Source: an uncultured Chloroflexia bacterium
GTDB lineage: Bacteria > Chloroflexota > Limnocylindria > Limnocylindrales > CSP1-4
Direction of reading: 5' to 3'
NCBI GenBank assembly: GCA_963813535.1
Contig: CAWEZH010000002.1
Location: 1,120,573 to 1,184,572, forward strand
DNA length: 64,000 bases
The notes below the pieces were generated by a model. It searched no databases. It saw only the letters and a program-made list of their open reading frames with translations, and was not told the DNA's origin. The translations under genes and the position numbers were made by a program. How positions within the stretch are numbered: the first letter of the stretch is position 1; the number at the start of each line of letters is the position of its first letter. Below, in pieces: positions 8,498 through 48,193 of the stretch.

Positions 8498-9362
8498 TTG
8501 CCGTCAAAGGAAACGCAGACGGGCGTGGGGATACTCATCGGCTTGGTCGTCCTCATCGCCCTCGCTCAACTTGTTATCGCCGCTCCGGCCTGGTCAGGCC
8601 CGGGACCTCGACCGGCGATCTTGGTCCCCCCCGTAGCCGGCGTCACGCCCGAGACGCCCACACCCGGGCGTGTTCCGTCCACTCCAGCGCCGGCCACTCC
8701 AGCCCCTGGCGTGGCCGTCGTTGAATTGACCCGGTCCACAGCGGACGCGGGACCGATTGATCTGCAAGCTGGCGGATCATCGTCACCGCCAGCGCCGACT
8801 CCGAGCGGCTTGGCGACGCCTGCCCCCTTGTCGTCACCGCCAGCGCCGACTCCGAGCGGCGTCGCGACGCCACCCCCCGGCGAGGTTTCCTTCCCGACTT
8901 CGCAGCCGACGCCGCCCGCGGCCTCGCCCACGCCCGACCCGACGCGGCCGCCATCGCCGCCACCGACTGCAGCACCGACCCACCAGCCCACGCGGGCGCC
9001 CACACCGCCGCCAACGCCGGCGCCGACGCCCAACCCAACGCCGGCGCCCACGCCCGCCCCAACACCGGATCCGACGCCGGCCCCGACACCGGATCCAACG
9101 CCGCCGCCGACGCCCGACCCAACGCCGGCACCGACACCCGATCCGACGCCGGATCCGACGCCGGCCCCGACACCGGATCCAACGCCGCCGCCGACGCCCG
9201 ACCCAACGCCGGCACCGACACCCGATCCGACGCCGGATCCGACGCCCGACCCGACGCCGGCCCCGACACCGGATCCAACGCCGGATCCGACACCCGACCC
9301 CAACGCCGGAACCGACACCCGATCCAACGCCGGATCCCACGCCCGAGCCGCAGCCCGGGTAA
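8498..9362 (+). CDS. secreted/membrane-anchored Pro-Thr-repeat protein, frameshifted near 9296 within the repeat (likely true stop at 9362)
   Basis: An N-terminal hydrophobic segment ([23 protein letters not shown]) is followed by about 40 PTP(D/A) units. A C-run (cgaccccaacg versus cgacccaacg) shifts the frame, and the +2 frame continues [20 protein letters not shown]. Confidence 0.55.
8900..9340. repeat. tandem degenerate 12-nt repeat (CCGACNCCGGAY)n encoding (PTPD/PTPA)n
   Basis: Directly visible in the sequence. The antisense and alternative frames give the spurious GSGVG-repeat and Arg-rich ORFs in the track. Confidence 0.8.
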
Positions 9363-9676
9363 CGTCGGTCCCCAGAACTGGGCCCGCTAGCCTTTCGACC
9401 GCCGCGGGTCCGGTCGACCGATGGTGTTCTGCAACCCTGGCGCGCGTACATCGCCCGGTCACCGGGGGCGCGTTGACGAAGCCATCGGTGATTGGGTCGG
9501 TTGCCCGGTGCGGCTAGGAAGTCGGAGTCATCGTCCGGGCCGTGGGTCTAACTTGACAGTGAGGCTTGCCGCGGTCGTCGTCCCAGGAGCGAGTCGCCAC
9601 CGATGATTGCCAAGCTCGGGGTACGGTCGCAAGATGACCGTCCGTCGCAGTCCGAACCACTGGGAGGAGCGGAGAG

Positions 9677-10066
9677 ATGGCGCATCCGAACGAGGATCTG
9701 GTCCGTCGCGGTTTTACGGCGTTCGGGACCGGAGACATCGCGACGCTAGGCGAGTTGTTCGCCGACAACATCGTCTGGCATGTCGGTGGACGCAGCCCGA
9801 TCACCGGGGATTACAAGGGCAAGGAACAGGTCTTCGGGTTTTTTGCCCAGCTCGCCGAACGGGCTGGGGGGACTTTCCGCCTTGACATCCACGACGTGCT
9901 GGCGAACGACGAGCATGTGGTCGCGCTGGTCAAGGCGACCGGGGAGCGCCAAGGGAAGACGCTGAACAACAACGGAGCGCAGGTCTTCCATGTGCAGGGT
10001 GGAAAGGTCACCGAGGTGTGGTTCCACCCGGACGACCAATACGCCGGCGACGACTTCTGGAGTTGA
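9677..10066 (+). CDS. SnoaL-like/NTF2-fold protein (paralog of 15702..16076)
   Basis: Translation includes LVRRGFTAFGTGDIATLGELFADNIVWHVGG..DEHVVALVKATGERQGKT...VFHVQGGKVTEVW, the characteristic SnoaL-like pattern. A GGAGCGGAGAGATGG-type Shine-Dalgarno sequence is present. Confidence 0.7.
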   Translation: MAHPNEDLVRRGFTAFGTGDIATLGELFADNIVWHVGGRSPITGDYKGKEQVFGFFAQLAERAGGTFRLDIHDVLANDEHVVALVKATGERQGKTLNNNGAQVFHVQGGKVTEVWFHPDDQYAGDDFWS

Positions 10067-10140
10067 CCCGGACCGAGCCAACTCTCGATCCCGGCTGCCA
10101 TCGCCGACGGCCGGTCAGTCAGCCCGGGCCGACCGGGGCA
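10066..10140. repeat. divergent copy R6 of the interspersed repeat
   Basis: It shares ctcgatcccggct...gccggtcagtc.gcccgggccgaccgggg with R4 and R5. It lies between the SnoaL-like gene and the tRNA fragment. Confidence 0.4.
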
Positions 10141-10215
10141 TTCATTGAGCAGTTAACAACGGGCACATCGCAGGGTGGCCCACTCACGGGAGCACGCCGC
10201 GTTGAGCCGGACATT

Positions 10216-10253
10216 TTAGAAGGCGCCTGCTCTGTCCACTGAGCTACGGGGAC
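10216..10253 (-). tRNA. truncated tRNA-Arg(TCT): 5' half only (acceptor 5' strand, D-arm, anticodon stem 5' strand and loop); 3' half absent
   Basis: The minus strand reads GTCCCCGTAGCTCAGTGGACAGAGCAGGCGCCTTCTAA. This is near-identical in architecture to bacterial tRNA-Arg(UCU) up to position 38, after which the complementary anticodon-stem strand, T-arm and acceptor 3' strand are missing. Confidence 0.6.
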
Positions 10254-10322
10254 GTCGTTAGCGCCTCAGCATACGCACGAAAACCGCCGGATCGACCTTG
10301 GCTCGTTGACGACCATCCGTGA

Positions 10323-11841: not shown

Positions 11842-11953
11842 CGTTTCGCCGCCTCGCGCCCTTGGACGCAGCGAGCGCGTCCCCGGGCACTGCGATGCCG
11901 TTCCTCTGGTCGGACCCGACGTAGCCGCCGCGGGGCTTACCTGCGGCGCGGGT

Positions 11954-12187
11954 CAGTCGAGCTTCCCCGTCGCGATCCACCGGCCGAAGAGCTCGACCTT
12001 GTCGGACGACCAGCCGCCGTCACACGGCATCGTGCCCTGCCGGAGACGACCGAGGATCGCCTCGGCGTTCGACCGGACCGTCAACCTCCCAGAGATCGAA
12101 GGCGAAGGCCATGGATTCGCGGTCCCTGGGTCGAAACAGGGGCTTGATGTGCTGCGCGAAGCTGACCGGTCGATCGGCGTCTGCCAT
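11954..12187 (-). CDS. small conserved-looking hypothetical protein with an apparent 1-nt frameshift near 12070
   Basis: Frame A reads MADADRPVSFAQHIKPLFRPRDRESMAFAFDLWEVD. The +1 frame continues TVRSNAEAILGRLRQGTMPCDGGWSSDKVELFGRWIATGKLD*, and both halves have good GC3. Confidence 0.35.
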
Positions 12188-12282
12188 GGTCGCGGTGATC
12201 TCCTCGTGCTTCGATCTGGATGTTGAGAGCACCAGGCAGGGCGGTCAGGTTCTTCGCCGCCTGCCTGGTGCCTCGCTCAGGA

Positions 12283-13179
12283 CTAGGCGAACCGCTTGAC
12301 GAAGTCGAGCGCGGTCTGGGCGACCTCGCGCCAGCCGTGGTCGATGGTGAGGGAGTGGCCTCGGTTCGGGATCTTCACGATCTCCGTCACGCCGGGGTTG
12401 CGCTTCTGCCGCTTGTAGGCGGCGTCCGCGATCGCCCATGGCACCGTGTGGTCCTTCTCTCCCTCGATGATCAGCAGCGGGCCGCGGTCCGGGTTCTTCG
12501 TGTCCACCTTCGCTTCGGTCCACGGATTGAGGTTCGCGTTGCCCATCTGCGCGAGCGAGATCCCGGAGGCGGCGACATGGAACTTGTCGTAGAGCTCCAT
12601 GGCCTCATCCTCGTCCAGGTTGTTCGTCCAGGCGTATCGGAACTGGTCGAACGTGAGCGTCAGCGCGCGGCCGCGATTGCGCGGGTTGATCAGGAACGGG
12701 CCGGCCGACCTGAGCACCGACAGCGGCAGCGGCAGAACGCCACGGAAGACTCCCGGGTCGATCGCCACGGTGACCGCCGCGAGCCCCTGCCCCGCGAGCA
12801 TCTCCGCGAGCAGACCGCCCGTCGAGTGGCCCATGACCACTGGCTTCCTGTCGAGGGCACTGATGATCTGGGTCGTGTGATCGGCCACCTGCTTCAGGGT
12901 CTTGTTGGCGAGGACCTCGGGCTCCGCACGGGCTTCCTCGACGGTTTCGGGATCATCAGGCCAGTCTGGCGTCAGCGCGACGTACCCAGCTTCCTCGAAC
13001 AGCGCGGCCCAGTTGTCCCAGCTCGAGGGCAACAGCCACAGCCCGTGGATGAAGATCACCGGTGTCGCCGTGGTCGCGTTCGCGCGCTCGATCTGCTCGC
13101 GCTCGCGATCGGAGATCGTCGCGCCCTCTCGATCCTGAGGGGCCACGGGCAATTCGGCCTGTGCAGACGTCGTGTTCAT
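12283..13179 (-). CDS. alpha/beta hydrolase fold protein
   Basis: Translation contains VIFIHGLWLLPSSWDNW and the nucleophile elbow GHSTGG, plus C-terminal acid/His regions. Confidence 0.8.
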   Translation of the reverse strand: MNTTSAQAELPVAPQDREGATISDREREQIERANATTATPVIFIHGLWLLPSSWDNWAALFEEAGYVALTPDWPDDPETVEEARAEPEVLANKTLKQVADHTTQIISALDRKPVVMGHSTGGLLAEMLAGQGLAAVTVAIDPGVFRGVLPLPLSVLRSAGPFLINPRNRGRALTLTFDQFRYAWTNNLDEDEAMELYDKFHVAASGISLAQMGNANLNPWTEAKVDTKNPDRGPLLIIEGEKDHTVPWAIADAAYKRQKRNPGVTEIVKIPNRGHSLTIDHGWREVAQTALDFVKRFA

Positions 13180-13198
13180 CCTTCGACTCTCCTCTCGT

Positions 13199-13996
13199 CT
13201 AACGGGCAGCTGCCGCCGCCGGAACAGATGCGTTCTCTCGGAGCCAGTCGTCGAGACGGATCTCGCCGAGCGTCGCGTCCGGGCCCGGGACGAGCGTGCG
13301 CTCGGCCAGGGGAGCCCCGAAGTACCGCGCCTGCGGGTCCGTCAGGATCTCGCGCGGGTCGTCCTTCGCGCCAAGTACTCGCCGGATGAGCGTGTCGAGG
13401 CGGAACTGCTCCGGGCCGCCGACCTCGACGATCCGGTTCGCTGCGGTCCCTGTGGCAGCGCGAGCGACCGCCGCGGCAACGTCCTCGGCCGCCATCGGCT
13501 GGACCAGTGCCTCGGACAGGTGGATCGTGTCGCCATGCGTCGCGTCATCGGCGATCTTGTCCACGAACTCGAAGAATTGGGTGGCGTGGACGATGGTGTA
13601 GGGGATCGGCGACGTCTTGATCAGGGTCTCCTGGGTGAGCTTCGCCCAGAAGTAGCCGGCGATCGTCGTCGTCAGGTCGGCGCTCTGCGCCAGCTCCTTG
13701 GTGCCGACGACCGATAGGGCGACGTGGTGACCCACGCCGGCCTCCTCCTCGGCATCGCGAAGGTTGGTGGTCGACTTTCCGAAGAACTCGATGGCCGGAG
13801 CGAAGTCGAACGATGGTGAATTCGACACGTCAACCACGACTGAGGTGCCCTTGAGCGCTGCCGCGACCCCTTCGCCGGTGATCGTGTTGATGCCCAGCCT
13901 GGGCGATGCGGGGACGGTCTCGTGGCCGTCTTCCTCGAGCTTGGCGACGACCTTCGAGCCGATCAGCCCGGTGCCGCCGATGACGACGATCTTCAT
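13199..13996 (-). CDS. NAD(P)-binding NmrA/atypical SDR family oxidoreductase
   Basis: Start chosen at MKIVVIGGTGLIGSKVV, a Rossmann GxxGxxG motif. The 405-aa track ORF has a low-quality N-terminal extension that was rejected. Confidence 0.8.
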   Translation of the reverse strand: MKIVVIGGTGLIGSKVVAKLEEDGHETVPASPRLGINTITGEGVAAALKGTSVVVDVSNSPSFDFAPAIEFFGKSTTNLRDAEEEAGVGHHVALSVVGTKELAQSADLTTTIAGYFWAKLTQETLIKTSPIPYTIVHATQFFEFVDKIADDATHGDTIHLSEALVQPMAAEDVAAAVARAATGTAANRIVEVGGPEQFRLDTLIRRVLGAKDDPREILTDPQARYFGAPLAERTLVPGPDATLGEIRLDDWLRENASVPAAAAAR

Positions 13997-14803
13997 GAGG
14001 GGTTGCGTCCTTTCCGTGTCTGGGCGCGAAGGCAGTGGGTCGTCGTGGTAACGATGATCAGTGGCCTCACCCACCCTCTCGATCGGCGTGGCCCGCGGCA
14101 TCGGCCCGGAGACGGGTGTATGGGATGACACGGATCTCGAGCGAGGCAGGGGTGCCTGGCATCGAGTGGAGAACAGCGCTCCCCCATGCGTCCCGGCTCT
14201 CGCAAGGAAGGTGAGAAGGCGGTCCATCTCCGCGTCGCGCCCCACCAGGTGACCGGCTGGACGAGCGTCGCCTAGCCATGCCTCGCACTGGGGAGCGGGG
14301 GTTTCGAGCATGGAGCGCAGCGGTGCGGGTGGACTGACAGGTCCGCACGGCAAGTTTGGACCTTCGGCAGATGGCGGGCAAGCGCCCGACGCCGCGTTTG
14401 GAGTCGTCTGACCCAAGACGGTCGATCGACCCCGGCCAGGACCATGGCGGCATTAGACGAAGCTGTTCCGTCGACCGCTTGATGCGCCTCTTGACGTAGC
14501 CGCTGACTGCCTGGTCAGCACAGCGGTATCGCGCTCGGTCGATCGTTCCGATCTAGCCGCGCGGGTCGTCTGGGACGCGCAGCAGCCCGGTCGCGAACAT
14601 GGCGATGAGAACCGCCACGACCACGCATAGAGCGAGCGGAACTAGTACTTCACTCATGCCGGAATGGTGCCCGCGCGATCTGTCCGGCTCGTTATCGATG
14701 CGTTAGCGAACCGAGACGCAGCCATCCAAGCTGCGCGCTATCTGAGCGAACCGCACATGGATGCGGCGTCGTCATTCCGCCTCCGAGCGCGCTGACCTCG
14801 ATC

Positions 14804-16111: not shown

Positions 16112-17050
16112 CTATGACGTGTTGACCTGACCGGTCAGCAGCAGGTAGACGAGTGTGGCGATGAGCGCCACGAGGACGATGACCACCACCAGTCGAACGA
16201 ACAGATCGACCCTGCTCCGGGCACCAAGGAGGCGACCCGGCCGTTCTTGGTCGACGTGTTCGTCATCCGCACCGACGCTTGCAACCTGGGCGAGCGTGGC
16301 CTGCTGAGGCTTGAGATCCGCGAACTGCCTGATGGCATCGGGGTCCATGACGCCTACGGGAACAAGGGCCGCGGAGGCCACATCATCGGCCGCATCCGAG
16401 CTCGACAACTGTGCCATCGCATCAGCGCGTGCCGCCGACGCCACCTCTTCGACATGTGGCGGCTCCGGCAGCTGGCTCGCCAACTGCGCGATATCGGTCG
16501 GTTCCCGTTCGACGGCGAGGAGGCCGACAAAACGACCTAGCTCCGCCTGATACTCCTCGACCGCCTCGCTGGCCCCGGAGATCTCCCGCTCCACCAGGGC
16601 GTCGTGCTGGCGCAGGTGCCGTTCGAGGTCCGCCTGTCGTGCGAGGATCCGACTCTCAGTCTCCAGACGGAGTCGCTCGCTTTCGTCCGCCGACCAGGCA
16701 TGGATCTGGCCGACGTCCTCGTCCGCGAGCCGCCTCAACTCCTCGGCCTCTTTCGCGGCGCGGGTTCGTACCTTTTGGACATGTGCCTCGAGGCTGTTCG
16801 CCGCCTCGGCAGCGATCCGCGCACGCTCGCCCTCGGCGGCCGCCTGCATCTGTCGGGCGATCACGTGGAGGAACGTGGGGACGACTCCGGCTTCAGCCGC
16901 CTCGCCGCGACCCTCGCCTATGGCCGCCGATGACACGGAGCCAGATGTCTCGTCCGTCAGGTCTGCCGTCTTGACACTCCCAGCAGTCGACCGATCAGCC
17001 GTCCCGGCTGACTCGTCTTCCGGATGGGAATGCTGCGTCTCGTGCTGCAT
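16112..17050 (-). CDS. hypothetical coiled-coil protein with C-terminal TM anchor
   Basis: An acidic N-terminus and long Ala/Glu/Arg-rich predicted coiled coil end in a C-terminal hydrophobic helix (LFVRLVVVIVLVALIATLVYLLL). The ORF is intact. Confidence 0.5.
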   Translation of the reverse strand: MQHETQHSHPEDESAGTADRSTAGSVKTADLTDETSGSVSSAAIGEGRGEAAEAGVVPTFLHVIARQMQAAAEGERARIAAEAANSLEAHVQKVRTRAAKEAEELRRLADEDVGQIHAWSADESERLRLETESRILARQADLERHLRQHDALVEREISGASEAVEEYQAELGRFVGLLAVEREPTDIAQLASQLPEPPHVEEVASAARADAMAQLSSSDAADDVASAALVPVGVMDPDAIRQFADLKPQQATLAQVASVGADDEHVDQERPGRLLGARSRVDLFVRLVVVIVLVALIATLVYLLLTGQVNTS

Positions 17051-17230
17051 GGGATCCCCGAGATCTTGCGCGCGCGTCCAAAAACCCTACCAGTGTCTGG
17101 AGCCTGTAGGCAACGCCTAGCCACAAGGCGTGGTGCGGATAGGAACCACAGGCGGCCACGGGGAGACGCTGGTGACCGCCTCCATCATCGGTATCCCAAC
17201 TCCAGGCATGTCGTACGCTTGGGACTCCCT

Positions 17231-17865
17231 GTGGACCGCCATCACCTGCTCCATCGAGCCCTCCGTCTTTCCGTCCTGAGCATCGTGCTCGCCGGTCTGC
17301 TCGGTGGCACCGCTGTGGTCGTCGGGTTGACGACCGGCAGCCTGTCGCTGCTCGGCTTCGGACTCGACGCGGCGATCGACTCGGCCGCCTCGGTCGTCCT
17401 CGTCTGGCAATTCCGGACCGAGGTCCGTGAGCCGCATCGAGCGGAGCGCATCGAGCGGCTCGCCGAAGGCGCAGTCGGCATCGTGCTCCTCGTCCTCGCG
17501 ACATACCTCGCGGTGAGCGCGGTGAACGCCATCGTCGCGCATGCCCACCCCGAGTCGAGTCCGGTGCGGACCGCGCTGCTCGTTGCCGCGTCGTCGTCCT
17601 CCCGCCCCTCGCGCTTGCGAAGTACCGGGTCGCACGAGCGCTGGACAGCGGGGCCCTTCGGGCGGACAGCATCCTCACCGCCATCGCCGCACTGCTCGGG
17701 GCGATCGGTCTCGTCTCCCTGCTCGTCGACGAGCTGTTCCACGTCCCCTGGGGCGATGCCGTGGGCGCCCTCATCATCGCCGTGATCATCGCTCGCGAGG
17801 GCTGGTCCTCGATCCAGGCGATCCGAACGTCAGACCCGATCCTGCCACGCCGAAATAGGGTCTAG
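17231..17865 (+). pseudogene. cation diffusion facilitator (CDF) family transporter remnant: frameshifted near 17592 and lacking the C-terminal cytoplasmic domain
   Basis: After a GTG start the frame reads MDRHHLLHRALRLSVLSIVLAGLLGG..GSLSLLGFGLDAAIDSAASVVLVWQF, the CDF TM1-2 signature. Following a 1-nt deletion in gcgtcgtcgtc, the -1 frame continues VVVLPPLALAKYRVARALDSGALRADSILTAIAALLGAIGLV...IIAREGW*. This totals about 210 aa against about 300 expected. Confidence 0.5.
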
Positions 17866-19518: not shown

Positions 19519-20919
19519 ATGACGGCCGGACCGACTCGCGCGCGAACGCCCACCGCCGCGCAACAGCTGGCCCTGGACCTGCCGGTCTCGCTGCCGGCCA
19601 TCGAGATCGAGCCCGAATGGAAGGCCCAGCAGCGCCTGTGGGGCCATTCGTTCCATCCGATGTGCTCGTATCTCGCCAGCTTCCCAGCCGCGCTGGCGCA
19701 TGCCTTCATCGCCCGCTATTCGCGTCCGGGTGACGTCGTCCTCGATCCGTTCTCGGGTCGCGGCACCACGCCGTTGCAGGCATGCGCCGAGGGTCGCATC
19801 GGCGTCGGCAACGACCTCAATCCCTTCGCCCACCTCCTGACGGCGTCCAAGGTCGAGCCGGCCACGCGACCCGCCGCGATGACCCGGCTGACCCAGCTCC
19901 GACTGGGCTGGAACGCGGACGCCGAGGCGTGGGTCGCGCTCGCCCGGCGCGTCACCGCCGATCCGACCGCCAGTCGTGTGCCGGTCGCTGGTTCGGGTCG
20001 TGGCCCCACCGATGGGTCGGAGGCCGTGCCGGTCGAGGTCGCCCTGGCCTTCCACCCCGACACGCTCGGCCAGCTCCTGTTCGTCCGCTCCGAACTTCGT
20101 CTCGACGACCGGACGGACCGGTTCCTCGCGGCCGCCATCACCGGCATCCTCCACGGCAAGAGCGCAAGCTACCTGTCGGAGCTGATGCCGAACACGTTCA
20201 GCATGGCCCCGCGCTACGTGCGCGACTTCGCCGCTCGCACCTCGTTCAGTTCGCCGCGCCGCGACGTCTTCGACGGCCTGACCTCGAAGGTCGGCCGCCT
20301 CTACCGCCAGGCCGGCCCGTTCACGGAGGGCGTCGCGCTGCTGGGCGACGCCCGTGATGTCGCGCCACGCGTGCGCGCCGCGCTTCGGGCCCAAGGCCGC
20401 CCCGATCGAGCCCGGCTCGTGGTGACCTCCCCGCCGTACCTACGGGTCGTCAAGTACGGCTACTACAACTGGCTGCGGACGTGGTTCCTCGGTTTCGACG
20501 CGAAGGACATCGACGCGACCCTGGACGATGCGCATCACCGCGAGCCGTATCTCGCGTTCCTGCGCGACGTGCTGGCCGACATGCGCGAGGTCCTGACGGA
20601 CGACGCCGTGGTCGTGCTCGTCATCGGCGATGTCGAGACGGACCGTGGCCGCCGGATCAAGGGCGGTGTCGGCCTGGCGGAACGGGCATGGGAGCTCGCG
20701 GCCGAGCCCGAGGGCTATCGACTCGCCGGGGTCGCACTCGACGACGTCGCGGCCGTCCGCAAGATGACCAAGCTATGGGGCGACGAGGCTGGTCGAGCGA
20801 CCAAGACTGACCGGATCCTCGTGCTGGGCGCGACCGAATCGGGTCGTCGACGGGCCCTTGCCGGCGCGTCGCTGGACATCGACTGGACCTGGCCGCCGAG
20901 GGCCCTGCGCGGGATCTGA
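19519..20919 (+). CDS. putative SAM-dependent DNA methyltransferase (N4-C/N6-A type, motif I before motif IV, i.e. alpha-like order); orphan
   Basis: Motif I VVLDPFSGRGTT occurs at aa 70-84 and motif IV VVTSPPYLRV at about aa 302, with a roughly 220-aa intervening region (candidate TRD). No restriction endonuclease-like ORF is adjacent. Confidence 0.5.
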   Translation: MTAGPTRARTPTAAQQLALDLPVSLPAIEIEPEWKAQQRLWGHSFHPMCSYLASFPAALAHAFIARYSRPGDVVLDPFSGRGTTPLQACAEGRIGVGNDLNPFAHLLTASKVEPATRPAAMTRLTQLRLGWNADAEAWVALARRVTADPTASRVPVAGSGRGPTDGSEAVPVEVALAFHPDTLGQLLFVRSELRLDDRTDRFLAAAITGILHGKSASYLSELMPNTFSMAPRYVRDFAARTSFSSPRRDVFDGLTSKVGRLYRQAGPFTEGVALLGDARDVAPRVRAALRAQGRPDRARLVVTSPPYLRVVKYGYYNWLRTWFLGFDAKDIDATLDDAHHREPYLAFLRDVLADMREVLTDDAVVVLVIGDVETDRGRRIKGGVGLAERAWELAAEPEGYRLAGVALDDVAAVRKMTKLWGDEAGRATKTDRILVLGATESGRRRALAGASLDIDWTWPPRALRGI

Positions 20920-23236: not shown

Positions 23237-23950
23237 ATGGCACAGAGCTCGATCCTCGGCCGCATCAGCCAGCTGATCCGCGCCAACGTCAACGCCATCC
23301 TCGACAGCGCCGAGGATCCGGAGCGGATGCTCGACCAGCTCGTGCGCGACTTCACGGACAACATCGCCGAAGCCGAGGACGCCGCCGCCCAGACGATCGG
23401 GAACCTGCGGCTGCTGGAGGACGACGCGAAGGAGGCGCGTGCCGCCTCTGCCGAGTGGCTCGACAAGGCCAAGGCCGCGTCACGTCGTGCGGACGAGCTC
23501 CGAGCCGCCGGCAATACGGCCGAGGCGGATCGGTTCGACGACCTGGCCAAGATCGCCATCCGTCGTCAGGTCAGCTACGAGAGTCAGACGAAGACGCTCG
23601 ACACCCAGATCGCCGGGCAGACAGAGCTCGCCGACAAGCTCAAGGACGGCCTCAACAAGTTGCGCGTGAAACGCGAGGAGTTGGTGCAGAAGCGAGACGA
23701 GCTGGTGGCGCGAGCCAAGATGGCGCAGGCCCAGTCGACCGTCCAGGAGACCCTCCAGAGCGTGTCGGTCCTCGATCCGACGAGCGAGCTGTCGCGCTTC
23801 GAGGAGAAGGTCCGGCGCCAGGAGGCGCAGGTCCGCGGGCGTGAGGAAGTCGCTGCTTCGTCCATCGACGAGCAGTTTGAATCGCTCGAGTCCGAAGAGG
23901 ACGAGCAGGAGGTCGACGCGCGACTCGCGGAGCTCAAGTCGGGCGGCTGA
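23237..23950 (+). CDS. pspA: PspA/IM30 family protein (phage shock protein A-like)
   Basis: The N-terminus MAQSSILGRISQLIRANVNAILDSAEDPERMLDQLVRDF is the canonical PspA/Vipp1 start. The 237-aa protein is all-helical and coiled-coil. Confidence 0.85.
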   Translation: MAQSSILGRISQLIRANVNAILDSAEDPERMLDQLVRDFTDNIAEAEDAAAQTIGNLRLLEDDAKEARAASAEWLDKAKAASRRADELRAAGNTAEADRFDDLAKIAIRRQVSYESQTKTLDTQIAGQTELADKLKDGLNKLRVKREELVQKRDELVARAKMAQAQSTVQETLQSVSVLDPTSELSRFEEKVRRQEAQVRGREEVAASSIDEQFESLESEEDEQEVDARLAELKSGG

Positions 23951-27188: not shown

Positions 27189-27265
27189 TGGTACCGCATA
27201 CCGGATTCGAACCGGTGATCTCCGCCTTGAGAGGGCGGTGTCCTGGGCCTCTAGACGAATGCGGC
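27189..27265 (-). tRNA. tRNA-Glu (anticodon CTC), 77 nt with encoded CCA
   Basis: The minus strand reads GCCGCATTCGTCTAGAGGCCCAGGACACCGCCCTCTCAAGGCGGAGATCACCGGTTCGAATCCGGTATGCGGTACCA. It has a 7-bp acceptor stem (G1-U72 wobble), an anticodon loop CTCTCAA, and a T-loop GGTTCGAATCC. Confidence 0.9.
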
Positions 27266-32136: not shown

Positions 32137-34632
32137 GTGTCTCATCAACGCTCGACGAGAGTCCCGGTCGCCGCGCGCCTGTTGCGCGTCGTGGCGGCAG
32201 CCGCCCTCGTCGGTGCGCTCGTCGGGCTCCCGGGCGGCGTCAGCGCGGCACCGTTCGCCGCGGTCACCCCGCCACCTGGTCTCACGATGGAGGCGACTGT
32301 CCTCCTCGACGGTCACGCACGCGTCGGGGCATGGATGGCCATCGACGTCCGCCTCAAGAACGACGGGCCGCCCATCACCGGTGAGCTGCGGCTCACCGGT
32401 GGGACGCAGGGCCGGACCCGGTTCGGGACCCTGGTCGAGGCACCCACCCAGTCGGACCAGACCCATCGCCTGTACGCCCAGCCACCGGGCTTCGGGCGCG
32501 AACTCGAGATCAGCCTCGTGAGCGGCGCCGACACGATCGCCACGACCAAGGCGGCCTTCACGATCCACGACGGGACCCAGATGGTCGTCGCCATCGTGGC
32601 CGAGCGACCCGGCGACGTCATCGGCGATCTCGACCTGCTGCCCAACGTCAACAACGTCAAGCCGTTGACCGTCGGCCTCGACCCGGCCGACCTGCCGACC
32701 CGCGTCGAGGCGTGGAGCGCGGTGGACCGGCTGATCTGGCAGGACGTCGATTCGAACCAGCTCAGCCCCGAGCAGCTCGATGCGATCCGCGGCTGGGTCG
32801 CCGGCGGTGGACGGCTGATCATCGCCGGTGGGACGGCCGGACCATCCAGCCTGTCGGCGTTCCCCGACGCGATCCTGCCCTATCGCCCGACGACGACCAC
32901 CGATGTCGCACCCTCGTCACTCGTCGCGCTGCTCGGCGAGCTGCCCGACGGGGCGACCGACCTTCCGGCCCTGTCTGGGGAGCTCATCGCGGGCCGGTCG
33001 CTCGCCACGGTCGGCGGCGAGACGGTCGCCGCGGAACGAACGTATGGCGCCGGAGCGGTCACCATCATCGGCTTCGATCCGACGACGCGCTGGCTCACCG
33101 GCACGAGCATCGCCGAGGGGCTGTGGCGGCGCCTGATCCCGACCCGAGCCGCGGGTACGGCGACGACCGGCGACGACAGCCAGATCGTCCAGGCTGCTGC
33201 GCAGCTCCCCTCGCTCGCCCTGCCGCCGGTCGGTGGGCTCGTGGGACTGCTCGCGGTGTACATCCTGCTGATCGGGCCGATCAACTACTTCGTGCTCAAG
33301 CGTCTCGACAAGCGCGAATGGGCGTGGGTGACGATGCCGGTGCTGATCGTGACCTTCGCGGCCGTCGCGTACGGCGTCGGGTCCGCCCTGCGCGGCAGCG
33401 ACATCATCGTCAACGAGGCCGCGATCGTCCGCGGTGCCCCAGGCGTCACCGAGGGTCTCGCCCAGACGTATCTCGGTGTCTTCTCACCGACCCGCGGCGC
33501 GTACCAGCTGCGCATCCCGGGTGGCGCGCTGCTGTCGTCGCCGACCAATGGCGACTTCATCGGCGACGGCACGGCAGCAAGCCTCGACGTGCTCCAGGGC
33601 GATCCGTCCCGCGTCCGCGACCTCAGCGTCGGCTTCGGCTCGTTGCGCACGATCCGGGCCGAGAGCTCGGTGAAGACCGTCCCCCTCGTCCAGGCCGACC
33701 TTCGCCTCGAGGATGGCCGGCTGCGGGGCACCGTGACGAATGCCTCGGAGGAGGTCCTCCAGGCACCTGCCGTCGTGCTCGGTGGCACGGTCGCCAAGCT
33801 GTCCGACATGGCTCCCGGCCAGACCGTGAACGTCGACGTCGCGCTCCAGGCCATCCAGCAGGGTCAGCAGCTGTCGGACAAGATCGTCGGCCCGCTGTTC
33901 TTCGGCGATCCGCGGCAGGCGGGTGAGGGTTCGGCCCGCCAGTACGCCCGCCACACCATCATCGACCAGCTCACGTTCGACCCGAACTGGGGGTTCACGG
34001 GCCAGTTGCCGGCCGACGGCGCCGTCGTGCTGGCGTGGTCCGATCGCGAGCTCCTGCCGGTCGAGATCGAGGGGCAGGTCGCTCGCCGCACCGCCAACGT
34101 CCTGTGGTTCCTGCCGGCCGACATCTCGGTCAGTGGCAAGACCACGTTCCGCCAGGATCTGCTGCGGAACACGGTCGTGTCCAGCGATGCCGCGTTCTTC
34201 AACAAGGACCCGTTCAACATCAGCTTCGGAAAGGGCAAGGCCGAACTGTCCTATCGACCCATCTCCTTCGAGGGCACGATCGATACCAGCCAGCTGGCGA
34301 TGGGCTTCAACTTCGGGGAGTTCGGCGTCCCGATCGATCCCAAGCCCATCAAGCCGCTCGACACGATCCCGGTCGCGTGTGGCGACAAGCCCGTCGCAGG
34401 GTGCGTCCAGGCGGTGTTCGACGGTATGCCCGAGGTCGAGCTGTACGACCTGACGACTGCCGCCTGGCGGCGTCTCCCGCACCTGGCGAGCGGCTCACGC
34501 TACGCGGTGGCCGACCCAGCGAACTACGTCGACAAGACGACGGGCACGGTCCTTGTGCGCTTCATCAATGATTCCGGAGACTGGGTCGGTTTCAATCTCG
34601 ACCTCTCGATCACCGGGGATATCCGACCATGA
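32137..34632 (+). CDS. large exported protein with signal peptide and internal TM pair; putative GldG-like ABC-transporter auxiliary component (first gene of cluster)
   Basis: A GTG start gives VSHQRSTRVPVAARLLRVVAAAALVGALVGLPGGVSA, a signal peptide. An about 520-aa beta-rich ectodomain (...GWVAGGGRLIIAGGTAG...) is followed by two TM helices (LVGLLAVYILLIGPINYFV / WAWVTMPVLIVTFAAVAYGV) and a second ectodomain. It overlaps the ABC ATPase start by 4 nt. The family assignment is inferred from context. Confidence 0.5.
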   Translation: MSHQRSTRVPVAARLLRVVAAAALVGALVGLPGGVSAAPFAAVTPPPGLTMEATVLLDGHARVGAWMAIDVRLKNDGPPITGELRLTGGTQGRTRFGTLVEAPTQSDQTHRLYAQPPGFGRELEISLVSGADTIATTKAAFTIHDGTQMVVAIVAERPGDVIGDLDLLPNVNNVKPLTVGLDPADLPTRVEAWSAVDRLIWQDVDSNQLSPEQLDAIRGWVAGGGRLIIAGGTAGPSSLSAFPDAILPYRPTTTTDVAPSSLVALLGELPDGATDLPALSGELIAGRSLATVGGETVAAERTYGAGAVTIIGFDPTTRWLTGTSIAEGLWRRLIPTRAAGTATTGDDSQIVQAAAQLPSLALPPVGGLVGLLAVYILLIGPINYFVLKRLDKREWAWVTMPVLIVTFAAVAYGVGSALRGSDIIVNEAAIVRGAPGVTEGLAQTYLGVFSPTRGAYQLRIPGGALLSSPTNGDFIGDGTAASLDVLQGDPSRVRDLSVGFGSLRTIRAESSVKTVPLVQADLRLEDGRLRGTVTNASEEVLQAPAVVLGGTVAKLSDMAPGQTVNVDVALQAIQQGQQLSDKIVGPLFFGDPRQAGEGSARQYARHTIIDQLTFDPNWGFTGQLPADGAVVLAWSDRELLPVEIEGQVARRTANVLWFLPADISVSGKTTFRQDLLRNTVVSSDAAFFNKDPFNISFGKGKAELSYRPISFEGTIDTSQLAMGFNFGEFGVPIDPKPIKPLDTIPVACGDKPVAGCVQAVFDGMPEVELYDLTTAAWRRLPHLASGSRYAVADPANYVDKTTGTVLVRFINDSGDWVGFNLDLSITGDIRP

Positions 34633-35591
34633 GCGAGATCGTCCGCACCGACGGCCTGGTCAAGCGCTATGACGGCACGCTGGCCGTCGCCGGCGTCGAC
34701 CTGTCCGTGGAGTCCGGCGAGATCTTCGGACTGGTCGGCCCCAACGGCGCGGGCAAGACGACCACGCTGCGCATCCTTGCGACGCTCCTCGCCCCGTCGG
34801 CCGGTACCGCAGAGATCGCCGGGATGTCGGTGACCCGGAACCCGGACCATGTCCGCCGCGTCATCGGGTTCATGCCGGACGCGTTCGGTGTCTACGACGA
34901 CATGAAGGTCTGGGAGTACCTCGATTTCTTCGCTCGCTGCTATGGCATCCCTCCGGCCGCGAGACGTCGGGTGATCACCGACCTGCTCGAGCTGGTCGAC
35001 CTAGCCGCGAAGCGGGATCAGTACGTCCAGACGCTGTCGCGCGGCATGCAGCAGCGACTGTGCCTCGCCCATGCGCTCGTCCACGATCCGCAGGTGCTGC
35101 TCCTCGACGAGCCTGCCTCGGGCCTCGATCCTCGGGCCCGGGTCGAGCTGCGCGAGCTGCTGCGGGAGCTCCGCGCGATGGGCAAGACGATCCTCATCAG
35201 CAGCCACATCCTTCCCGAGCTCGAGGAGCTGTGCACCAGCGTCGCGATCATCGATCGCGGCCAGGTGCTGGCCCAGGGTCGGGTCGCCGAGATCGAGAAG
35301 CGCCTCCGCTTCGGGGCGGTGCTCCGGGTGAAGGTGCTCCTCGAGGGCGAGGCCCTCGAAGCCGCGCGCGAGCGGCTCGCGGCCGACGCCGATGTCGCTT
35401 CCGCCGTGGTGCTCGAGGACGGCACGATCGAGCTCGGGTTCCGCGGCGATGACGAGGCGACTGCCCGCTTGCTGGCATCATCGGTGGCGTCCGGCATGCC
35501 GGTCGTGAGCTTCTCCCGGGCGGCAAGCGACCTCGAGGAGCTGTTCCTGCAGGTCACATCCCCCGACCAAGAACCCGTCGCCGCGGCGTAG
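34629..35591 (+). CDS. ABC transporter ATP-binding protein (ABC-2/GldA/NosF-like subfamily)
   Basis: Walker A GPNGAGKTT, Q-loop, signature LSRGMQQRL, Walker B LLLDEPASGLD and the H-loop SSHIL are all present. Confidence 0.9.
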   Translation: MSEIVRTDGLVKRYDGTLAVAGVDLSVESGEIFGLVGPNGAGKTTTLRILATLLAPSAGTAEIAGMSVTRNPDHVRRVIGFMPDAFGVYDDMKVWEYLDFFARCYGIPPAARRRVITDLLELVDLAAKRDQYVQTLSRGMQQRLCLAHALVHDPQVLLLDEPASGLDPRARVELRELLRELRAMGKTILISSHILPELEELCTSVAIIDRGQVLAQGRVAEIEKRLRFGAVLRVKVLLEGEALEAARERLAADADVASAVVLEDGTIELGFRGDDEATARLLASSVASGMPVVSFSRAASDLEELFLQVTSPDQEPVAAA

Positions 35592-35600
35592 GAGCGCGAT

Positions 35601-36774
35601 ATGGCCGAGATCACCGCCGCGCCGCCCCGACCGACAGGCCCGCGTTTCGGCGCGTTCGCACGCACGGTCGGAGGCATCGCCGCGATCGGCGTCAAGGAGC
35701 TCCGCGGGCGGATGCGCGGCCGGCGCGCCTTCGTGATCCTCACCATCTATCTGCTGCTGCTTGCCGGCTTCGCGCTCATGGTCGAGCGGGTCATGGAAAC
35801 GATGTTCGAGAACCCGTTCGCCGGGACGTCGGCGACGGCCAGCCCGACCATCGGCCAGGGCATCTTCGCGGCACTGCTGCTCCTGATGACCCTCCAGGTC
35901 GTCTTCCTGGCGCCGGCATCGACCGCGGGCGCGATCTCGCTCGAGCGCGAGAAGCAGACCCTCGAATTGCTCACCACGACGCCCATCAGCTCGCTGGCGA
36001 TCGTCGTCGGCAAGCTGCTGTCGGCACTCGTCTACGTGTTCCTGCTCATCGCCGCGTCTATCCCGTTGATGGCAGTGGTCTTCGTCTTCGGTGGTGTCGG
36101 CCCCGAGGACGTCGTCCGCGGCTACATCGTGCTGATCGTCACCGCACTCGGCCTGGGCTCGTTCGGGTTGCTCTGCTCCAGCATCGTCAAGCGGACGACG
36201 GCAGCCACCGCCATCACGATCTTCGGCGTCCTCGCGATCACGATCGGGACGGTGTTCCTGCTGGTCTTCTGGCAAGCGATGGGCTCGTTCGATGCGAACG
36301 GGAACCGGCGGCCCGGTCCGCTCGGCATCCGGACGCCCACGCCGCTCGCCTGGGTCAACCCCTTCATGGCGCAGCTCGACGTGCTGTGCGGTACCGAATT
36401 CGACGTTCGGCGGCGGATGGTGCGGCGTCGTCAACGGTTTGGTGCCGACGACCGACGGTGTCGTCTTCAACGACGGGGGCGGGGGCGTCCCCATGCCGGC
36501 CCCGATGCCGGTCGCGATCCCCGAGAAGGGCATGATGCCGGGCGCGGACGGCGCGGCCGTCATCGACGACGTCGGGGTGGCACGTGAGTTCGCCCCCGGC
36601 GACGTCGTGGCCGAGCAGCCGTTCGGCGTCCAGCGCGACACCCTGTGGACCAAGACCGTGGCGATGTGGCTCGGACTGTCGGTCCTGTTCCTGGTGCTCT
36701 CGGTCCAGGCGGTCTCGCCGACGCGGCGATGGCGGATCCGGCGCCCCTCGAGACACCGGAGTTCGCCGTCATGA
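35601..36774 (+). CDS. ABC-2 family permease (GldF/NosY-like, 6 TM), apparent frameshift near 36400 then a C-terminal extension with a 7th helix
   Basis: Frame 1 gives six TM helices up to ...AWVNPFMAQLDVLCGTEF. The +2 frame continues GGGWCGVVNGLVPTT...TVAMWLGLSVLFLVLSVQAVSP and ends at 36774, overlapping the next ATG in an ATGA junction. The rest of frame 1 is Arg-rich nonsense. Confidence 0.6.
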
Positions 36775-38690
36775 CGCTCGGACTCCGCCAGGTCGCGAGC
36801 TGGCCGGCACGTTGGCGGACGCCGACGGAACCGGTCGTGGAGCCGCCCGACCCGCGCCAGGCGCTGTCGGGCCCGCTCGATCCGTCGCTCGAGGCGATCC
36901 GCGCCGAATTGGCGTCGCATCGTCGCCGGTTGTGGACACGCCGCATCGTGCGTCGCACGTGGATGGCGGTCGCCGCGATCGCCATCGGCGAAGCCGCGCT
37001 GTGGACGGTGGCCCGGTTCGTACCCCTCGAGGCAGCCCCGATCATCGCGGCCGCCATCCCCATGGCGGTGGCGCTGGTCCTGCTCGTGTTCGTCCTTCGC
37101 GCACGGCCGTCGCTCGGTGCGACCGCCCTGGCAGTCGACGTCGAGGGCGGCCTTGGCGACCGCGTCTCGTCGGCGCTGGAGCTGGCGGTCGGGTTCCCCG
37201 GATCAGCCACCCCACCCGCCGACGACCTCGATCTGGACGCGTCGGTCGCTGCCGTCGATGAGCTCGCCGAAACGGATCGATTCGTCCGCCGACAGCGGCG
37301 CGACGCACTCACGAAGTTGCGGACGGCGCCGGCACTGTTCAAGCCGCGCTTCTCTCGTCATCCGGCGCTCGCCGCCCTGGTGGCGGTCGCGCTGCTCGTG
37401 CCGGTCCTCGTCCTGCCGAACCCTCAGTCCGCGGTCCTCGCCCAGCAGCGGGATGTCCGCGAGGCCGCGGCTCGCCAGGCGGATCGGCTCGACGTCATCG
37501 CCCGCGATCTCGAGGACAAGGGCCGGACCGCGGAGGATCCACGCACCCGCCTTGCGGAGGAGCTGCGCGAACTGGCTCGTCGACTTCGCTCGCAGCCCGA
37601 CGACCTTGCTGCCAACCTTCGCCAGCTCGGTGCCGTCGAAAGCGACATCCGGGCGCGCATCGACCCCGCGACAGAGCAGCGCGCCTCGGCGATGACCTCG
37701 CTCTCGCGCTCGCTGTCACGCGCTGCGACCGCCAACCCTGACGCCAACCGCGACGGTGATCCGCAGAAGACACGCGAGGATCTCGACAAGCTCGGTGACA
37801 AGCTCGACGAGATGACCGACGCGGAGCAGCGCGAGCTGGCGCGGCAGCTGGCCGAGATGCAGTCGACCGCTTCGAGCGCCGACGGCGGCGCGGCCACCGC
37901 TCTCCGGGATGCGGCCCAGAGCCTCGCCCAGGGGGACACGGCCGGCGCCAAGTCCGCACTCGATCGGCTGGGCGAGGCCATGACCGGGACACAGGCGAAT
38001 GTCGATACCAACCGCGATCTGGCCGAGGCGGCGTCGCGCCTTCAGGACGCCCGCCGGGACCTGGCCGATGCCGGGCAGCAGGGGCAGGGCCAGCAGGGGC
38101 AGGGCCGGCAGGGTCAGGGCCAAGGTCAAGGCCAGGGCCAGGGGCAGGGTCAAGGCAGCCCGCAGCCGAGCGGGCAAGGTCAGGGTCAAGGGCAAGGTCA
38201 GGGGCAAGGCCAGGGTCAAGGGCAAGGCCAAGGACAAGGTCAGGGTCAAGGGCAAGGCCAAGGACAAGGTCAGGGGCAAGGCCAAGGCCAAGGACAAGGT
38301 CAGGGTCAGGGCCAAGGGTCCATCGGTGGTGGCGGCTCGAACGCCCGATCGCTGGGCCAGGGCACGGGCGGCAATGCGCGGCCCGGTGCGCCGACCGGTG
38401 CCAACCGCGCCGCGCAGCTCGGCGAGGACCTGTCTTCGGTCTTCGCGCCGTTCGACCGCGTCGGCAAGCCCGGCGATCCCTCGTACGTCGCAGGGACCGG
38501 TGGCGATGGCCAGACCCAGCAGGGAAATGGCGTCGGTTCCGGCACCAACAACGGCGTGCTGACGCCGTACCAGCAGGTCTACACCGACTTCCAGGACTAC
38601 GCACAGACGTCCCTCGACCGCGGCTACGTGCCGCTGTCGATCAAGGACTACGTGCGCGACTACTTCAGCTCGCTCGACCCGTCCAACTGA
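36772..38690 (+). CDS. membrane-anchored coiled-coil protein with a (QG)n low-complexity tract
   Basis: Translation starts MTLGLRQV.. and has two TM helices (WMAVAAIAIGEAALWTVARF / PIIAAAIPMAVALVLLVFVL), then a third (ALAALVAVALLVPVLVL). A long Ala/Asp/Arg coiled coil follows, then about 45 QG dipeptides and a conserved C-terminus ending ...YVPLSIKDYVRDYFSSLDPSN. Confidence 0.6.
38076..38318. repeat. tandem hexanucleotide repeat (CAGGGN/CAAGGN)n, about 40 units, encoding (QG)n
   Basis: Directly visible and near-perfect. It also generates the long spurious antisense ORFs 37495..38604 and 37716..38747. Confidence 0.85.
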
Positions 38691-40735: not shown

Positions 40736-40744
40736 CGGCCACAC

Positions 40745-45858: not shown

Positions 45859-45885
45859 CCGGCGAACACAATCCCGGCCCGCGGG

Positions 45886-48193
45886 TCAGCGGCGCGCCAG
45901 ACCGTGGCCCGGCGGTAACTCCTCGATCTCCGGCATCGACGCATCGTCCAGGATGCCCATCGACCACGCGGTCGCCTCGACGCCGCCGCCTCGATTCCGA
46001 CCCGCCGCGGCCAGCCCACGGGCGGCCACGACGCCGAGCAGTGTGAGCGCTGCGATGAGGGCCCACGGGAACTGGCGGTAGTCGACGCCACCGACGACCG
46101 AGAACTCGCCGATCGAGGTGTTGCCCGACACGTCTGTAGCCGTGAGCCGGATCATCTGCGGCCATGGCGCAAGGCGCGTGACCACGGTGAACCGGCCGCG
46201 GTCATCGACCTCGAGGGGGCCGGCGCCGTCGATGCCGACCGTGGAACCGGGTTCGGCGCGGCCGGGGAGTCGTGCGAGGAACGGCCAGACCGGGTTCGTG
46301 AACGGCGTCTCGAGGTTGAGCGTCGGCCCGACCGCATCGCGGGCGATCGTGCGGACCACCGGGAACCCGACCTCACCCCAGTCGTTGACCGGGACGACCC
46401 GCATCGCCCACCGCGTCGTCGAATCGGTCCCCGTTCGACGGATCGCCCCGAGCTCGAGCGTCGTGAACGAGCCGTCGCGACCCGACTCGTTGCCCGGCGG
46501 GACGGGGACGCGCACGGTGCGCACGACGCCGTCGCCGTCGGGTGCCTCGAGCAGGCCCTCGATCTTCGAGGGCGCCACGTCCGCACCCTCCTCGCCCTCG
46601 GCGAGCGGCGCGATGCTGACGAACATGCGCGTGCCGGTGAAACCCGGGAGGATCGTGCTGCCATCGCTCGCCGTGGCCGCCTCGATGGTCGCCTTGGGCG
46701 ACGGGAAATCCTGGAAGTAGACGACGTCGCTGCCGCGCACCTCGGAGAGCACGAACGGGGTAGATGGCCCGTGCCGCCACCAGCCGGCGGGCCCCGCTGC
46801 CAGTGGCGTCGGGCTGGTCGGCAGCCCGACCGCCGGATCCCACCCGACACCGGCCGCGATCAATCCGGCACGCCGGCCTTCGATCGGCATCGCCGCCGCG
46901 AGACGCGTCGCGACCCAGGTCGCACCCTCGCGGAGATCGGCGACTCCGCACGGCAGGATGGCCCCCGGCATGACCAGGTCGGGACAGGCATCGTCGGCGA
47001 TCGCCCCGAACCAGGCACTCGACAGGCCGTGGACCAGGACATCGGTCGTGGCCGAGGAGGTCAGCAGGTCCCATCGGTCGCCGGCCAGCGCCCGTCGATC
47101 GAGGCTCGTATGGTCGCTGCCGACGAACCGGCCGTCGGCCGAGCGGTGGAGGCGTTCGGCATGCAGGCCGTCCGGGGAAAGCCAGCCGATGCGATCCGCA
47201 TCCCCCGACGCGCCCGCGTCCGGACCCGCAACGAGCGGGATCGTGGGTCCGTCGAACAGCCGCTCCGGCTCGCCCCCCGCGGCGTCCACCACCGCGAGAC
47301 CCTCCGCCAATGAAGCCAGGGCGTGGTCCGGACCGTCCTCCTCGCTGCCCAGTCGGATCGGCGGCGGGATGATCGTCAGGTCGCGCGACGCCCCGAGTTC
47401 TGCGACCGTCGTCTCGGTCCCGTCGCGCAGACGGACGGCGACCAGCCGCGACTGACCTGGCCCGCCGGGCGGGCACTGTGCCGATGCATTGACCAGCAGG
47501 TCGTCGCCCGGGGCGCCGTCCCAGCGTCCGATGACCCCTCGACCCAGCCGGCCAGGCATGTCGATGGAGCGACGGACGGCCGCTGTCGCCGAGTCGAGCA
47601 CCAGCAACGAGGTCGTGCCGCACGAGCCGCTCGCATCGAATGACGGACGCAGCCCGAGCACGATCTCGTTCGTGCCGAGCCCGTCGACGTCGGCTGCACC
47701 GGCATCCTCGATCGCCTGGTCGATCCGCCCGCGGCCTGTCTGGACCAGCGTGGGCGCGCCCGCCTCCTCGCGCACCTCGATGCCGACGACGATCGCGTGC
47801 GCCGGTTCCCGGCGCGTTCATCGGGCTCGTGCCGATCAGAGCGAACCGGTCATCACCGAGGCCGACCAGCCAGCGCGCGTCGAGATCGTCGCGCTCGAGA
47901 TCGACGTCGAGGACGGTGATCCTCTCCCAGGAGCTCGCACGGCGAAGGATCGACAGGCGCGCCATGGTCGGCGTCAGCCGCTCGTCGTCGAGGACGAGCA
48001 GCATCGGGGTGGTCCCCTGCGGAGCACCGTCCGTCGGGCCGAGGACGGCCATGTCGGCCATGGGCGACTCGAGTCGGCTCGCCACCGGGGACGATCCGGC
48101 GCCGGCCGCAGCCGGAACGACACCGGCGGCCAGGGCGATGCCCAGCACGGCGGCCCAGATGGACGAGCGTGGCGGTCGGTTCGCAGCGGTCAT
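45886..48193 (-). CDS. large secreted protein with signal peptide and C-terminal TM anchor; apparent 1-nt frameshift near 47800
   Basis: The N-terminal 130 aa (MTAANRPPRSSIWAAVLGIALAAGVVPAAAG...LIGTSPMNAPGTG) are in the 48193 frame. The remaining 629 aa, in the 47775 frame, are beta-rich and end ...FPWALIAALTLLGVVAARGLAAAG. The frames meet at ggaaccggcgcacgcgatc. Confidence 0.5.

Follow-up and report, generated by a model that had tools for sequence, protein, structure and literature searches.

Within a 64,000-nucleotide stretch (hereafter, the window) of contig CAWEZH010000002.1 from an uncultured Chloroflexia bacterium, we confirmed six frame switches in coding sequence. Five of them (5726, 12078/9, 17590/1, 36399, and 47800) very probably represent residual long-read consensus errors of one or two bases, as judged from alignments with related assemblies and orthologs. 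The remaining one, in a PT-repeat protein (site 1), was set apart, since another assembly has the extra base too. We infer that the lesions originated in consensus calling and not in the DNA. The biology behind the frame switches is ordinary.

Frame switches in the window

The preliminary description of this DNA had counted at least six genes that switch frame. Five of the six sites that it listed are real in the sequence, the one in the open reading frame (ORF) at 3748..4020 was not confirmed, and we added one unlisted frameshift at ~5726, the seventh site overall (Table 1). The density of ~1 per 10 kb given at that time agrees with our finding of ~1 confirmed lesion per 10.7 kb.

Table 1. 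Genes with a confirmed frame switch and positions of the lesions in the window.
Site	Feature	Position	Strand	Remark
5726	Gene of a 339-aa membrane-anchored protein	5169..6189	-	Unlisted frameshift; one extra base at 5715-5729
5726	Zone with the extra base of the 5169..6189 gene	5715..5729		T at 5726 missing from L002
1	PT-repeat protein ORF as assembled	8498..9517	+	Conserved reading stops at 9362
1	C-run CCCC with the extra base	9298..9301	+	Present in L002 too
2	Small conserved ORF, 78 aa repaired	11953..12187	-	2-bp deletion between 12078 and 12079
3	Short CDF-type cation transporter, 212 aa repaired	17231..17865	+	1-bp deletion between 17590 and 17591
4	ABC-2 permease, 390 aa repaired	35601..36774	+	One extra T at 36399-36400
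5	Large secreted/anchored protein, 768 aa repaired	45886..48193	-	One extra base at 47800

Frame switches were scanned with a codon-model Viterbi procedure, in place of a sliding GC3 frame plot, which gave too noisy a signal. Further same-strand changes in the Viterbi path, at 2512, 26050, 30622, 38037-38301, 53403, and 54710, corresponded to ordinary gene boundaries (2512, 53403, and 54710 among them) or to repeat-composition effects. Candidates at 26050/25918, 37407, 38037-38301, and 59572 turned out to be places where a relative is broken and the window intact, or effects of GQ-repeat composition. An indel at 17230, considered as a second frameshift of the CDF gene, was dropped, as the frames do not join. 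The possible switch in the minus-strand ORF 3748..4020 was not confirmed. Its weak coding score is ambiguous between the strands and mirrors the plus strand, a profile search gave no Pfam match, and no usable homolog was found, the only metagenome match being the antisense shadow of an unrelated PLP-enzyme gene.

Conservation of the repaired frames and selection on the genes

The comparison with orthologs that had been proposed as a check was run, and the fused frames are conserved among homologs. Homologs that extend across the repaired junctions number in the hundreds, and the repaired frame is the conserved one.

The gene with the unlisted frameshift encodes an N-terminal segment, a transmembrane helix, a PT-rich linker, and a conserved C-terminal domain. 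As assembled, it forms two ORFs of 181 and ~149 aa, with the Viterbi frame switch at 5720/5721. Deletion of any single base within 5715-5729 produced one continuous ORF. Seven homologs (316-354 aa) can be aligned with it over the full length, and invariant residues flank the junction on both sides.

The switch placed at ~12070 in the small conserved ORF is real; the lesion lies on the minus strand and, as a loss of two bases, disagrees with the earlier statement that all indels are of ±1. Three related MAGs (L006, L007, and L008), more distant than the assemblies at 96-98% identity, read through this site and carry the ORF intact (GACGA[TC]GTTCGATCG versus GACG--GTCCGGTCG in the window).

The CDF switch expected at ~17592 corresponds to the loss of the A of CGATCG, which is retained in the assembly L084 at 96.4% identity (GCGATCGTC versus GCG-TCGTC in the window). 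This gene had been regarded as truncated and thus as a real pseudogene, a view that our results contradict. The repaired protein matches Pfam Cation_efflux (PF01545) over profile positions 2-189 of 198 (E = 3.6e-17), as compared to positions 2-113 for the unrepaired one. More than 100 homologs, 193-230 aa long, align with it at 89-100% coverage, and an intact 211-aa copy was found at 97% identity. Canonical CDFs have a C-terminal cytoplasmic domain that is missing from the repaired protein and likewise from these homologs. Judged from such alignments, the gene is a complete member of a family whose proteins are short by nature (~210 aa).

The extra T in the ABC-2 permease confirms the switch indicated at ~36400. 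The assembly L083 (98.4% identity) reads GAA-TCG at this place, versus GAATTCG in the window. An intact 390-aa protein (P0001) is 99% identical to the repaired permease, and alignments with more than 100 homologs (367-408 aa) extend over 91-100% of the query. The switch at ~47800 in the secreted protein likewise comes down to one extra base, missing from L001 (97-98% identity) as well as from L087 (97.5%), which is a scaffold of an unrelated project. L087 differs from the window by 112 substitutions over 4,437 bp, and its sole gap is at 47800. Four independent orthologs, each of exactly the repaired length, span the junction unbroken.

Assemblies at 96-98% DNA identity thus carry sites 3 to 5 unbroken, the respective lesions being missing from L084, L083, and L001/L087; the lesion at 5726 is missing from L002, and that at site 2 from the three MAGs. 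The truncated products as assembled (328, 629, and 181 aa) occur in exactly one contig among ~15 billion proteins.

Next, we evaluated selection on the interrupted genes, for which the neutral expectation of the nonsynonymous fraction is 72%. Synonymous and nonsynonymous differences amounted to 19/1 in the ABC-2 permease, 13/2 in the CDF transporter, and 22/14 in the secreted protein, and to 235/34 in intact control genes (nonsynonymous 34/269). Nonsynonymous differences thus made up 1/20, 2/15, and 14/36 for the ABC-2, CDF, and secreted-protein genes, respectively, and purifying selection was evident downstream of each shift too. Relaxed selection, with a nonsynonymous fraction near 0.72, was not found in any of these three genes. 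Nor did a search for signs of decay (shared lesions, further lesions, or truncation) detect more than one private lesion per gene, site 1 being the sole shared one.

The extra base at site 1 recurs in another assembly

The frame switch at ~9296 in the PT-repeat protein, described as lying in a C-run, was confirmed, with the extra base placed in the run at 9298-9301. An otherwise 12-nt repeat array shows a single 13-nt spacing at 9262->9275. Three-frame translation revealed that upon removal of one base, the PT frame ends in '...PEPQPG*' with the stop at 9360-9362; in the ORF as assembled, the final 72 codons are read through out of frame. GACCCCAACG occurs with the identical frame switch in the window and in L002 (97% identity), so that the absence from independent assemblies observed for the other lesions does not extend to this extra C. 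Its occurrence in two assemblies is not explained by random consensus error.

Two readings apply to site 1: a systematic error specific to its tandem-repeat context, or a real but tolerated change confined to the last ~20 residues. The second option, in which the PT array gained a true +1 insertion in an ancestor, shared between strains and replacing the last ~20 residues by read-through sequence, is plausible, if somewhat short of probable. The identical sequence and frame switch in both assemblies are consistent with it, and only a short C-terminal stretch of a low-complexity repeat protein is hit, so the change could be tolerated. It is opposed by a more distant ortholog on a SPAdes-style, short-read-type contig (P0242), which ends in '...PTPAPTPPG*' immediately past the repeat, as in the repaired frame, and by the non-coding appearance of the read-through tail (GC1/2/3 = 0.65/0.75/0.72). 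In addition, the PT array is error-prone in such assemblies, as seen in L002 and P0241, and the window and L002 may share a platform and hence one systematic error.

Sister assemblies carry similar lesions

Related assemblies are broken by private indels at positions where the window is intact. In L083, these gene-breaking indels lie at 25918, 37407, the GQ repeat, 41195, and 42056, and in L001 at 61472, 59572, 57392/57232, 54696, and 49115, the one at 54696 fusing a lipoprotein ORF to LipA. L002 shows many such private breaks, and L084 (Logan) has one gene-splitting indel, at 16655. Indels of a length other than a multiple of three fell mostly within genes (9/10 versus L083 and 12/19 versus L001). 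Syntenic flanks were sought in genome contigs and not found, only a ~2-kb cassette being common, and exact-product look-ups of 12283-13179, 34629-35591, 9677-10066, 23237-23950, and 3111-3479 gave no match.

The closest genomes are MAGs of the MFD catalogue, recorded as 'uncultured Chloroflexia' and with contigs named in the Flye style. This catalogue is Nanopore-only, assembled by Flye --meta with one round of Medaka polishing (PMC12313526), and indels that fragment gene calls persist in Nanopore bins below ~40x (PMC9262707). Together with the 2-Mb size of the source contig, these relatives point to Nanopore as its sequencing platform. The window is part of a 2,039,081-bp contig in the MAG of a high-GC, Limnocylindria-like member of the Chloroflexota, built, most likely, from Nanopore reads alone. 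Errors of one or two bases would remain after a long-read metagenome assembler and polisher at modest coverage or with mixed strains, and gene callers would then cut each intact gene into two ORFs; in the organism, the affected genes themselves would be functional.

Thus, the preference of the preliminary description for assembly or MAG-consensus indels over independent pseudogenization gains support from the private lesions, the conserved fused frames, purifying selection, the breaks in sister assemblies, and the Nanopore-only relatives. Site 1, which is shared, stands apart.

Sequence context and other explanations

To place the lesions in their sequence context, we considered them together with the single-base indels between assemblies. 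Only site 1 lies within a run (4 bases); the other five lesions stand at run length 1-2, and none of the 79 runs of at least 5 bases in the window, including the 14 of at least 6, is affected. The 32 inter-assembly single-base indels distribute over run lengths 1 (23), 2 (7), 3 (1), and 4 (1) and show no stronger association with runs than a base picked at random. This location outside homopolymers is unlike the textbook Nanopore error and speaks against an artefact.

Following the idea of a methylation motif, we found no enrichment of GATC near the indels (9/33 versus 0.18 expected, p = 0.13). Among the ten motifs tried, GGCC (16/33 versus 0.18, p = 8e-5) and CCGG (p = 0.007) were enriched.

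Genuine, very recent frameshifts, in a strain or population with broken copies that reflect incipient pseudogenization or a mutator lineage, are an unlikely explanation for the whole set, although any single site may be a real private mutation. The lesions do stand in the deposited sequence and are reflected in the gene calls of the source contig, site 1 is common to a second assembly, and L084 has a gene-splitting indel as well. However, sites 2 to 5 and 5726 are found in no relative at 96-98% DNA identity, both halves of the genes are under purifying selection, and there are no in-frame stops or truncations besides, the CDF gene being full length. Moreover, an equal or higher load of other private breaks would be needed independently in every sister long-read assembly. 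Mutation-accumulation studies show that natural indels favor runs, yet 23/32 here lie outside any run. If the frameshifts were real, private and very recent non-homopolymer mutations would stand at a high load of ~1 per 10 kb in this soil lineage and its sisters, in genes that had been subject to purifying selection until very lately, which we consider very unlikely; such a load would call for an unusual mutational process, or else for a population structure in which gene inactivation is tolerated on a wide scale. In a milder variant, only the shared site-1 insertion is real and has remodelled the C terminus of a PT-repeat surface protein.

Homopolymer errors, which the preliminary description had suggested, fare worse. 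Classical run-length errors, as produced by 454, Ion Torrent, or older Nanopore chemistry, would fit site 1, where the C-run counts 3 versus 4 bases. They are hardly credible for the set as a whole, given the run lengths at the other five lesions, the untouched long runs, and the 23/32 inter-assembly indels at run length 1; a 2-Mb soil-type metagenome contig is also unlikely to be a 454-era product. Regulation by programmed ribosomal frameshifting, transcriptional slippage, or phase variation has a negligible probability: apart from the tandem repeat and short C-run at site 1, nothing specific suggests it, the orthologs keep to one frame at these places, the contexts have no slippery motif in common, and the shifts differ in direction and size (+1, -1, and -2).

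Discussion

Residual consensus error, our preferred reading for the five private lesions, has a practical rather than a biological value. About one in ten genes in the window is mis-called, that is, split or truncated, through single-contig indels. Work that builds on this MAG and its sister long-read assemblies, be it annotation, pangenome analysis, pseudogene counting, or metabolic inference, would therefore overstate gene loss. As the residual errors are not bound to homopolymers, homopolymer-aware fixes would miss them, and polishing has to be guided by a reference or by short reads. With the repaired coordinates, six proteins are recovered.

Genes with programmed +1 or -1 frameshifts, such as prfB, dnaX, and those of IS3-family transposases, have sites that are conserved in orthologs and carry slippery motifs. 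The window genes resemble these in that one protein is derived from two overlapping frames, but the orthologs of the window genes are in a single frame. The window also resembles pseudogene-rich, decaying genomes, such as that of Mycobacterium leprae or those of recently host-restricted bacteria, in having several frameshifted genes at ~1 per 10 kb. Genome decay, however, leaves lesions that are shared among close relatives, several per gene, along with truncations and relaxed selection, while the lesions described here are single and, site 1 aside, private, in genes with a low nonsynonymous fraction. Published accounts of Nanopore errors stress homopolymers, whereas the indels observed here are overwhelmingly outside runs. 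In other respects, the residual indels of Nanopore-only genomes and metagenomes, as revealed by IDEEL-type tests, offer a close parallel: isolated indels of 1-2 bp cut intact genes, the lesions vary among assemblies of the same species, and the relatives come from a Flye and Medaka catalogue.

Frame switches and the reading frames they interrupt

The preliminary description had listed six genes that each change frame once, an observation that proved largely right: three-frame translations confirmed five of the six. The exception was the ORF at 3748..4020 on the minus strand, for which a family search gave no match and a homolog search no real homolog; its coding potential was weak and mirrored on the opposite strand. 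A Viterbi scan, using a codon-usage model trained on the window's long genes, independently found the switches at sites 2-5. It also flagged a seventh frameshift, missing from that list, where any single-base deletion in 5715-5729 fuses two ORFs to give a 339-aa reading frame. The related contig L002 is continuous across this site, and seven homologs (316-354 aa) align along the whole repaired product, with invariant residues flanking the junction on either side. A frame change in the long Gly-Gln (GQ) dipeptide repeat of a 639-aa protein was a false signal of the scan, caused by the repeat's codon usage; the repeat differs in length between the window and L083 by several 12-16 nt blocks.

Window coordinates of the features and of private breaks in related assemblies (for sites 2-5 and the seventh frameshift, frame-switch points of the Viterbi scan)
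Feature	Position	Detail
Site 1, PT-repeat protein	9298-9301	extra C in C-run
Site 2, small conserved ORF (-)	12069/70	two bases common to L006, L007 and L008 (three MFD MAGs) absent
Site 3, CDF transporter	17589/90	A of CGATCG missing, present in L084
Site 4, ABC-2 permease	36404/5	GAATTCG, GAATCG in L083; one extra T
Site 5, secreted protein	47800/1	one surplus base at 47800 vs both L001 and L087
Seventh frameshift, gene 5169..6189 (-)	5720/5721	
About 70-nt element	959-1029, 1711-1777, 2956-3026, 7687-7753, 8289-8359	also L085 (related species' contig) 1862-2096
Direct repeat, two copies	1532-1641, 6827-6936	110 nt, 86% identity
About 2-kb cassette	11886-14000	NmrA-like gene, alpha/beta-hydrolase, small ORF
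N6_N4 DNA methyltransferase gene	19519-20919	
tRNA gene (-)	27192-27265	sole Rfam match within the window
GQ-repeat protein	36771-38690	
Insertion in L001	51701	5.1 kb (L001 11106-16241); NTP_transf_5 gene, ABC transporter fragments
L083 breaks	25918, 37407, GQ repeat, 41195, 42056	ENA ERZ25039588 contig_11029, 2.0 Mb; 98.4% identical to window
L001 breaks	61472, 59572, 57392/57232, 54696, 49115	L001 and L002: ENA ERZ25039576 contig_37405; 94-98% identical
L002 breaks	many	
L084 break	16655	Logan contig; 96.4% identical
L087		scaffold, unrelated ENA project; 97.5% identical

It is the fused frames that homologs conserve. Once repaired, the ABC-2 permease has 390 aa, and over 100 homologs between 367 and 408 aa long match it with 91-100% coverage; an intact copy among them is 99% identical. 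The secreted protein has 768 aa after repair, a length shared by four independent orthologs, two from JGI/IMG and two from ENA, in which the frame is continuous across the junction. The CDF gene had been set apart as truncated and probably a real pseudogene. This did not hold, because the repaired product (212 aa) matches the lengths of more than 100 homologs (193-230 aa, coverage 89-100%) and spans positions 2-189 of the 198-position Cation_efflux profile, as against 2-113 unrepaired.

At site 1, the PT array has a 12-nt period with a single 13-nt step (9262->9275), and removal of one base lets the PT frame reach "...PEPQPG*". In a more distantly related ortholog, from a contig of SPAdes style, the same kind of ending comes straight after the repeat. 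This lesion is not private, since L002 shares the extra C and the frame switch. It may be a systematic error induced by the repeat context; otherwise it is a real insertion, common to both assemblies and of little consequence.

Repeats and a cassette in the window

The first 8.4 kb hold five copies of a dispersed G+C-rich element of about 70 nt. One long hairpin is predicted per copy (z-scores -1.3 to -5.8), Rfam gave no match to the element, and it looks like a REP/MITE-type intergenic repeat. L002 matches the 110-nt direct repeat at both window positions. The cassette occurs at 85-93% identity in several Chloroflexia MAGs with flanks that are not syntenic, and the 97%-identical L002 lacks the portion with the hydrolase and small ORF (11886-13195); sequence comparison suggests that it is mobile or recently transferred. 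The L001 insertion is a strain-specific island.

Sequence context of the indels

The lesions had been described as all +/-1 indels typical of homopolymer errors. Site 2 contradicts the first part, because the window lacks two bases there. As to the second, the lesions are not homopolymer errors: a run is affected only at site 1, where it is 4 bases long, the 79 runs of at least 5 in the window are all free of lesions, and for 23 of 32 single-base indels between assemblies the base was outside any run. Between L087 and the window, 112 substitutions across 4,437 bp accompany a sole gap, at 47800. Around site 2, the 2-bp deletion and two substitutions fall inside 10 nt. Against L084, the window has a compensating -1/+1 pair at 17537-17541, spaced by 4 nt, which leaves the CDF frame unbroken and alters two residues (AIVAHAHPE vs AIVSAAHPE); L002 is a hybrid of both states, with its frame broken there. 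Clustering of this kind resembles local problems in the consensus more than slippage.

Enrichment of GATC near indels was sought and none was found. Among 33 small indels separating the window from L083, L001, and L084, 16 had GGCC no more than 10 nt away (18% expected, p about 8e-5) and 14 had CCGG nearby (22% expected). Short G/C doublets may account for this, or an effect on basecalling linked to methylation.

Assembly indels or gene decay

In the entire protein collection, the as-assembled truncated products (328, 629, and 181 aa) were confined to a single contig, and none of the relatives searched shared lesions 2-5 or the seventh, at 5726. Relative to 96-98% identical genomes, synonymous/nonsynonymous changes numbered 19/1 in the ABC-2 permease, 13/2 in CDF, and 22/14 in the faster-evolving secreted protein. 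All three are well under the neutral expectation of 72% nonsynonymous and similar to intact control genes (235/34), and the low share persists downstream of each frameshift. Sister assemblies carry private gene-breaking indels of their own where the window is intact. Non-3n indels between near-identical genomes fall mostly inside genes (9 of 10 vs L083; 12 of 19 vs L001), a pattern that selection would not leave.

Window G+C is about 70%, and several of its genes have homologs whose annotation reads Candidatus Limnocylindrales/Limnocylindria. By exact matching, the window's gene products lie on one contig of 2,039,081 bp, present in NCBI and ENA. The nearest genomes found were MAGs labelled "uncultured Chloroflexia", which bear MFD isolate names and whose contigs are named in Flye style. 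The frameshifts themselves are nothing biologically novel. Privacy, selection, sister-assembly breaks, indel distribution, and provenance agree with the earlier proposal of assembly or MAG-consensus indels rather than decay, which these lines of evidence support well, short of proof. MAGs in the MFD catalogue come from Nanopore data alone, with Flye --meta --nano-hq as the assembler and a single round of Medaka polishing, and the catalogue's authors checked low-coverage MAGs for Nanopore-associated errors (PMC12313526). For Nanopore bins below about 40x, short-read polishing has been reported necessary, as indels fragment gene calls (PMC9262707).
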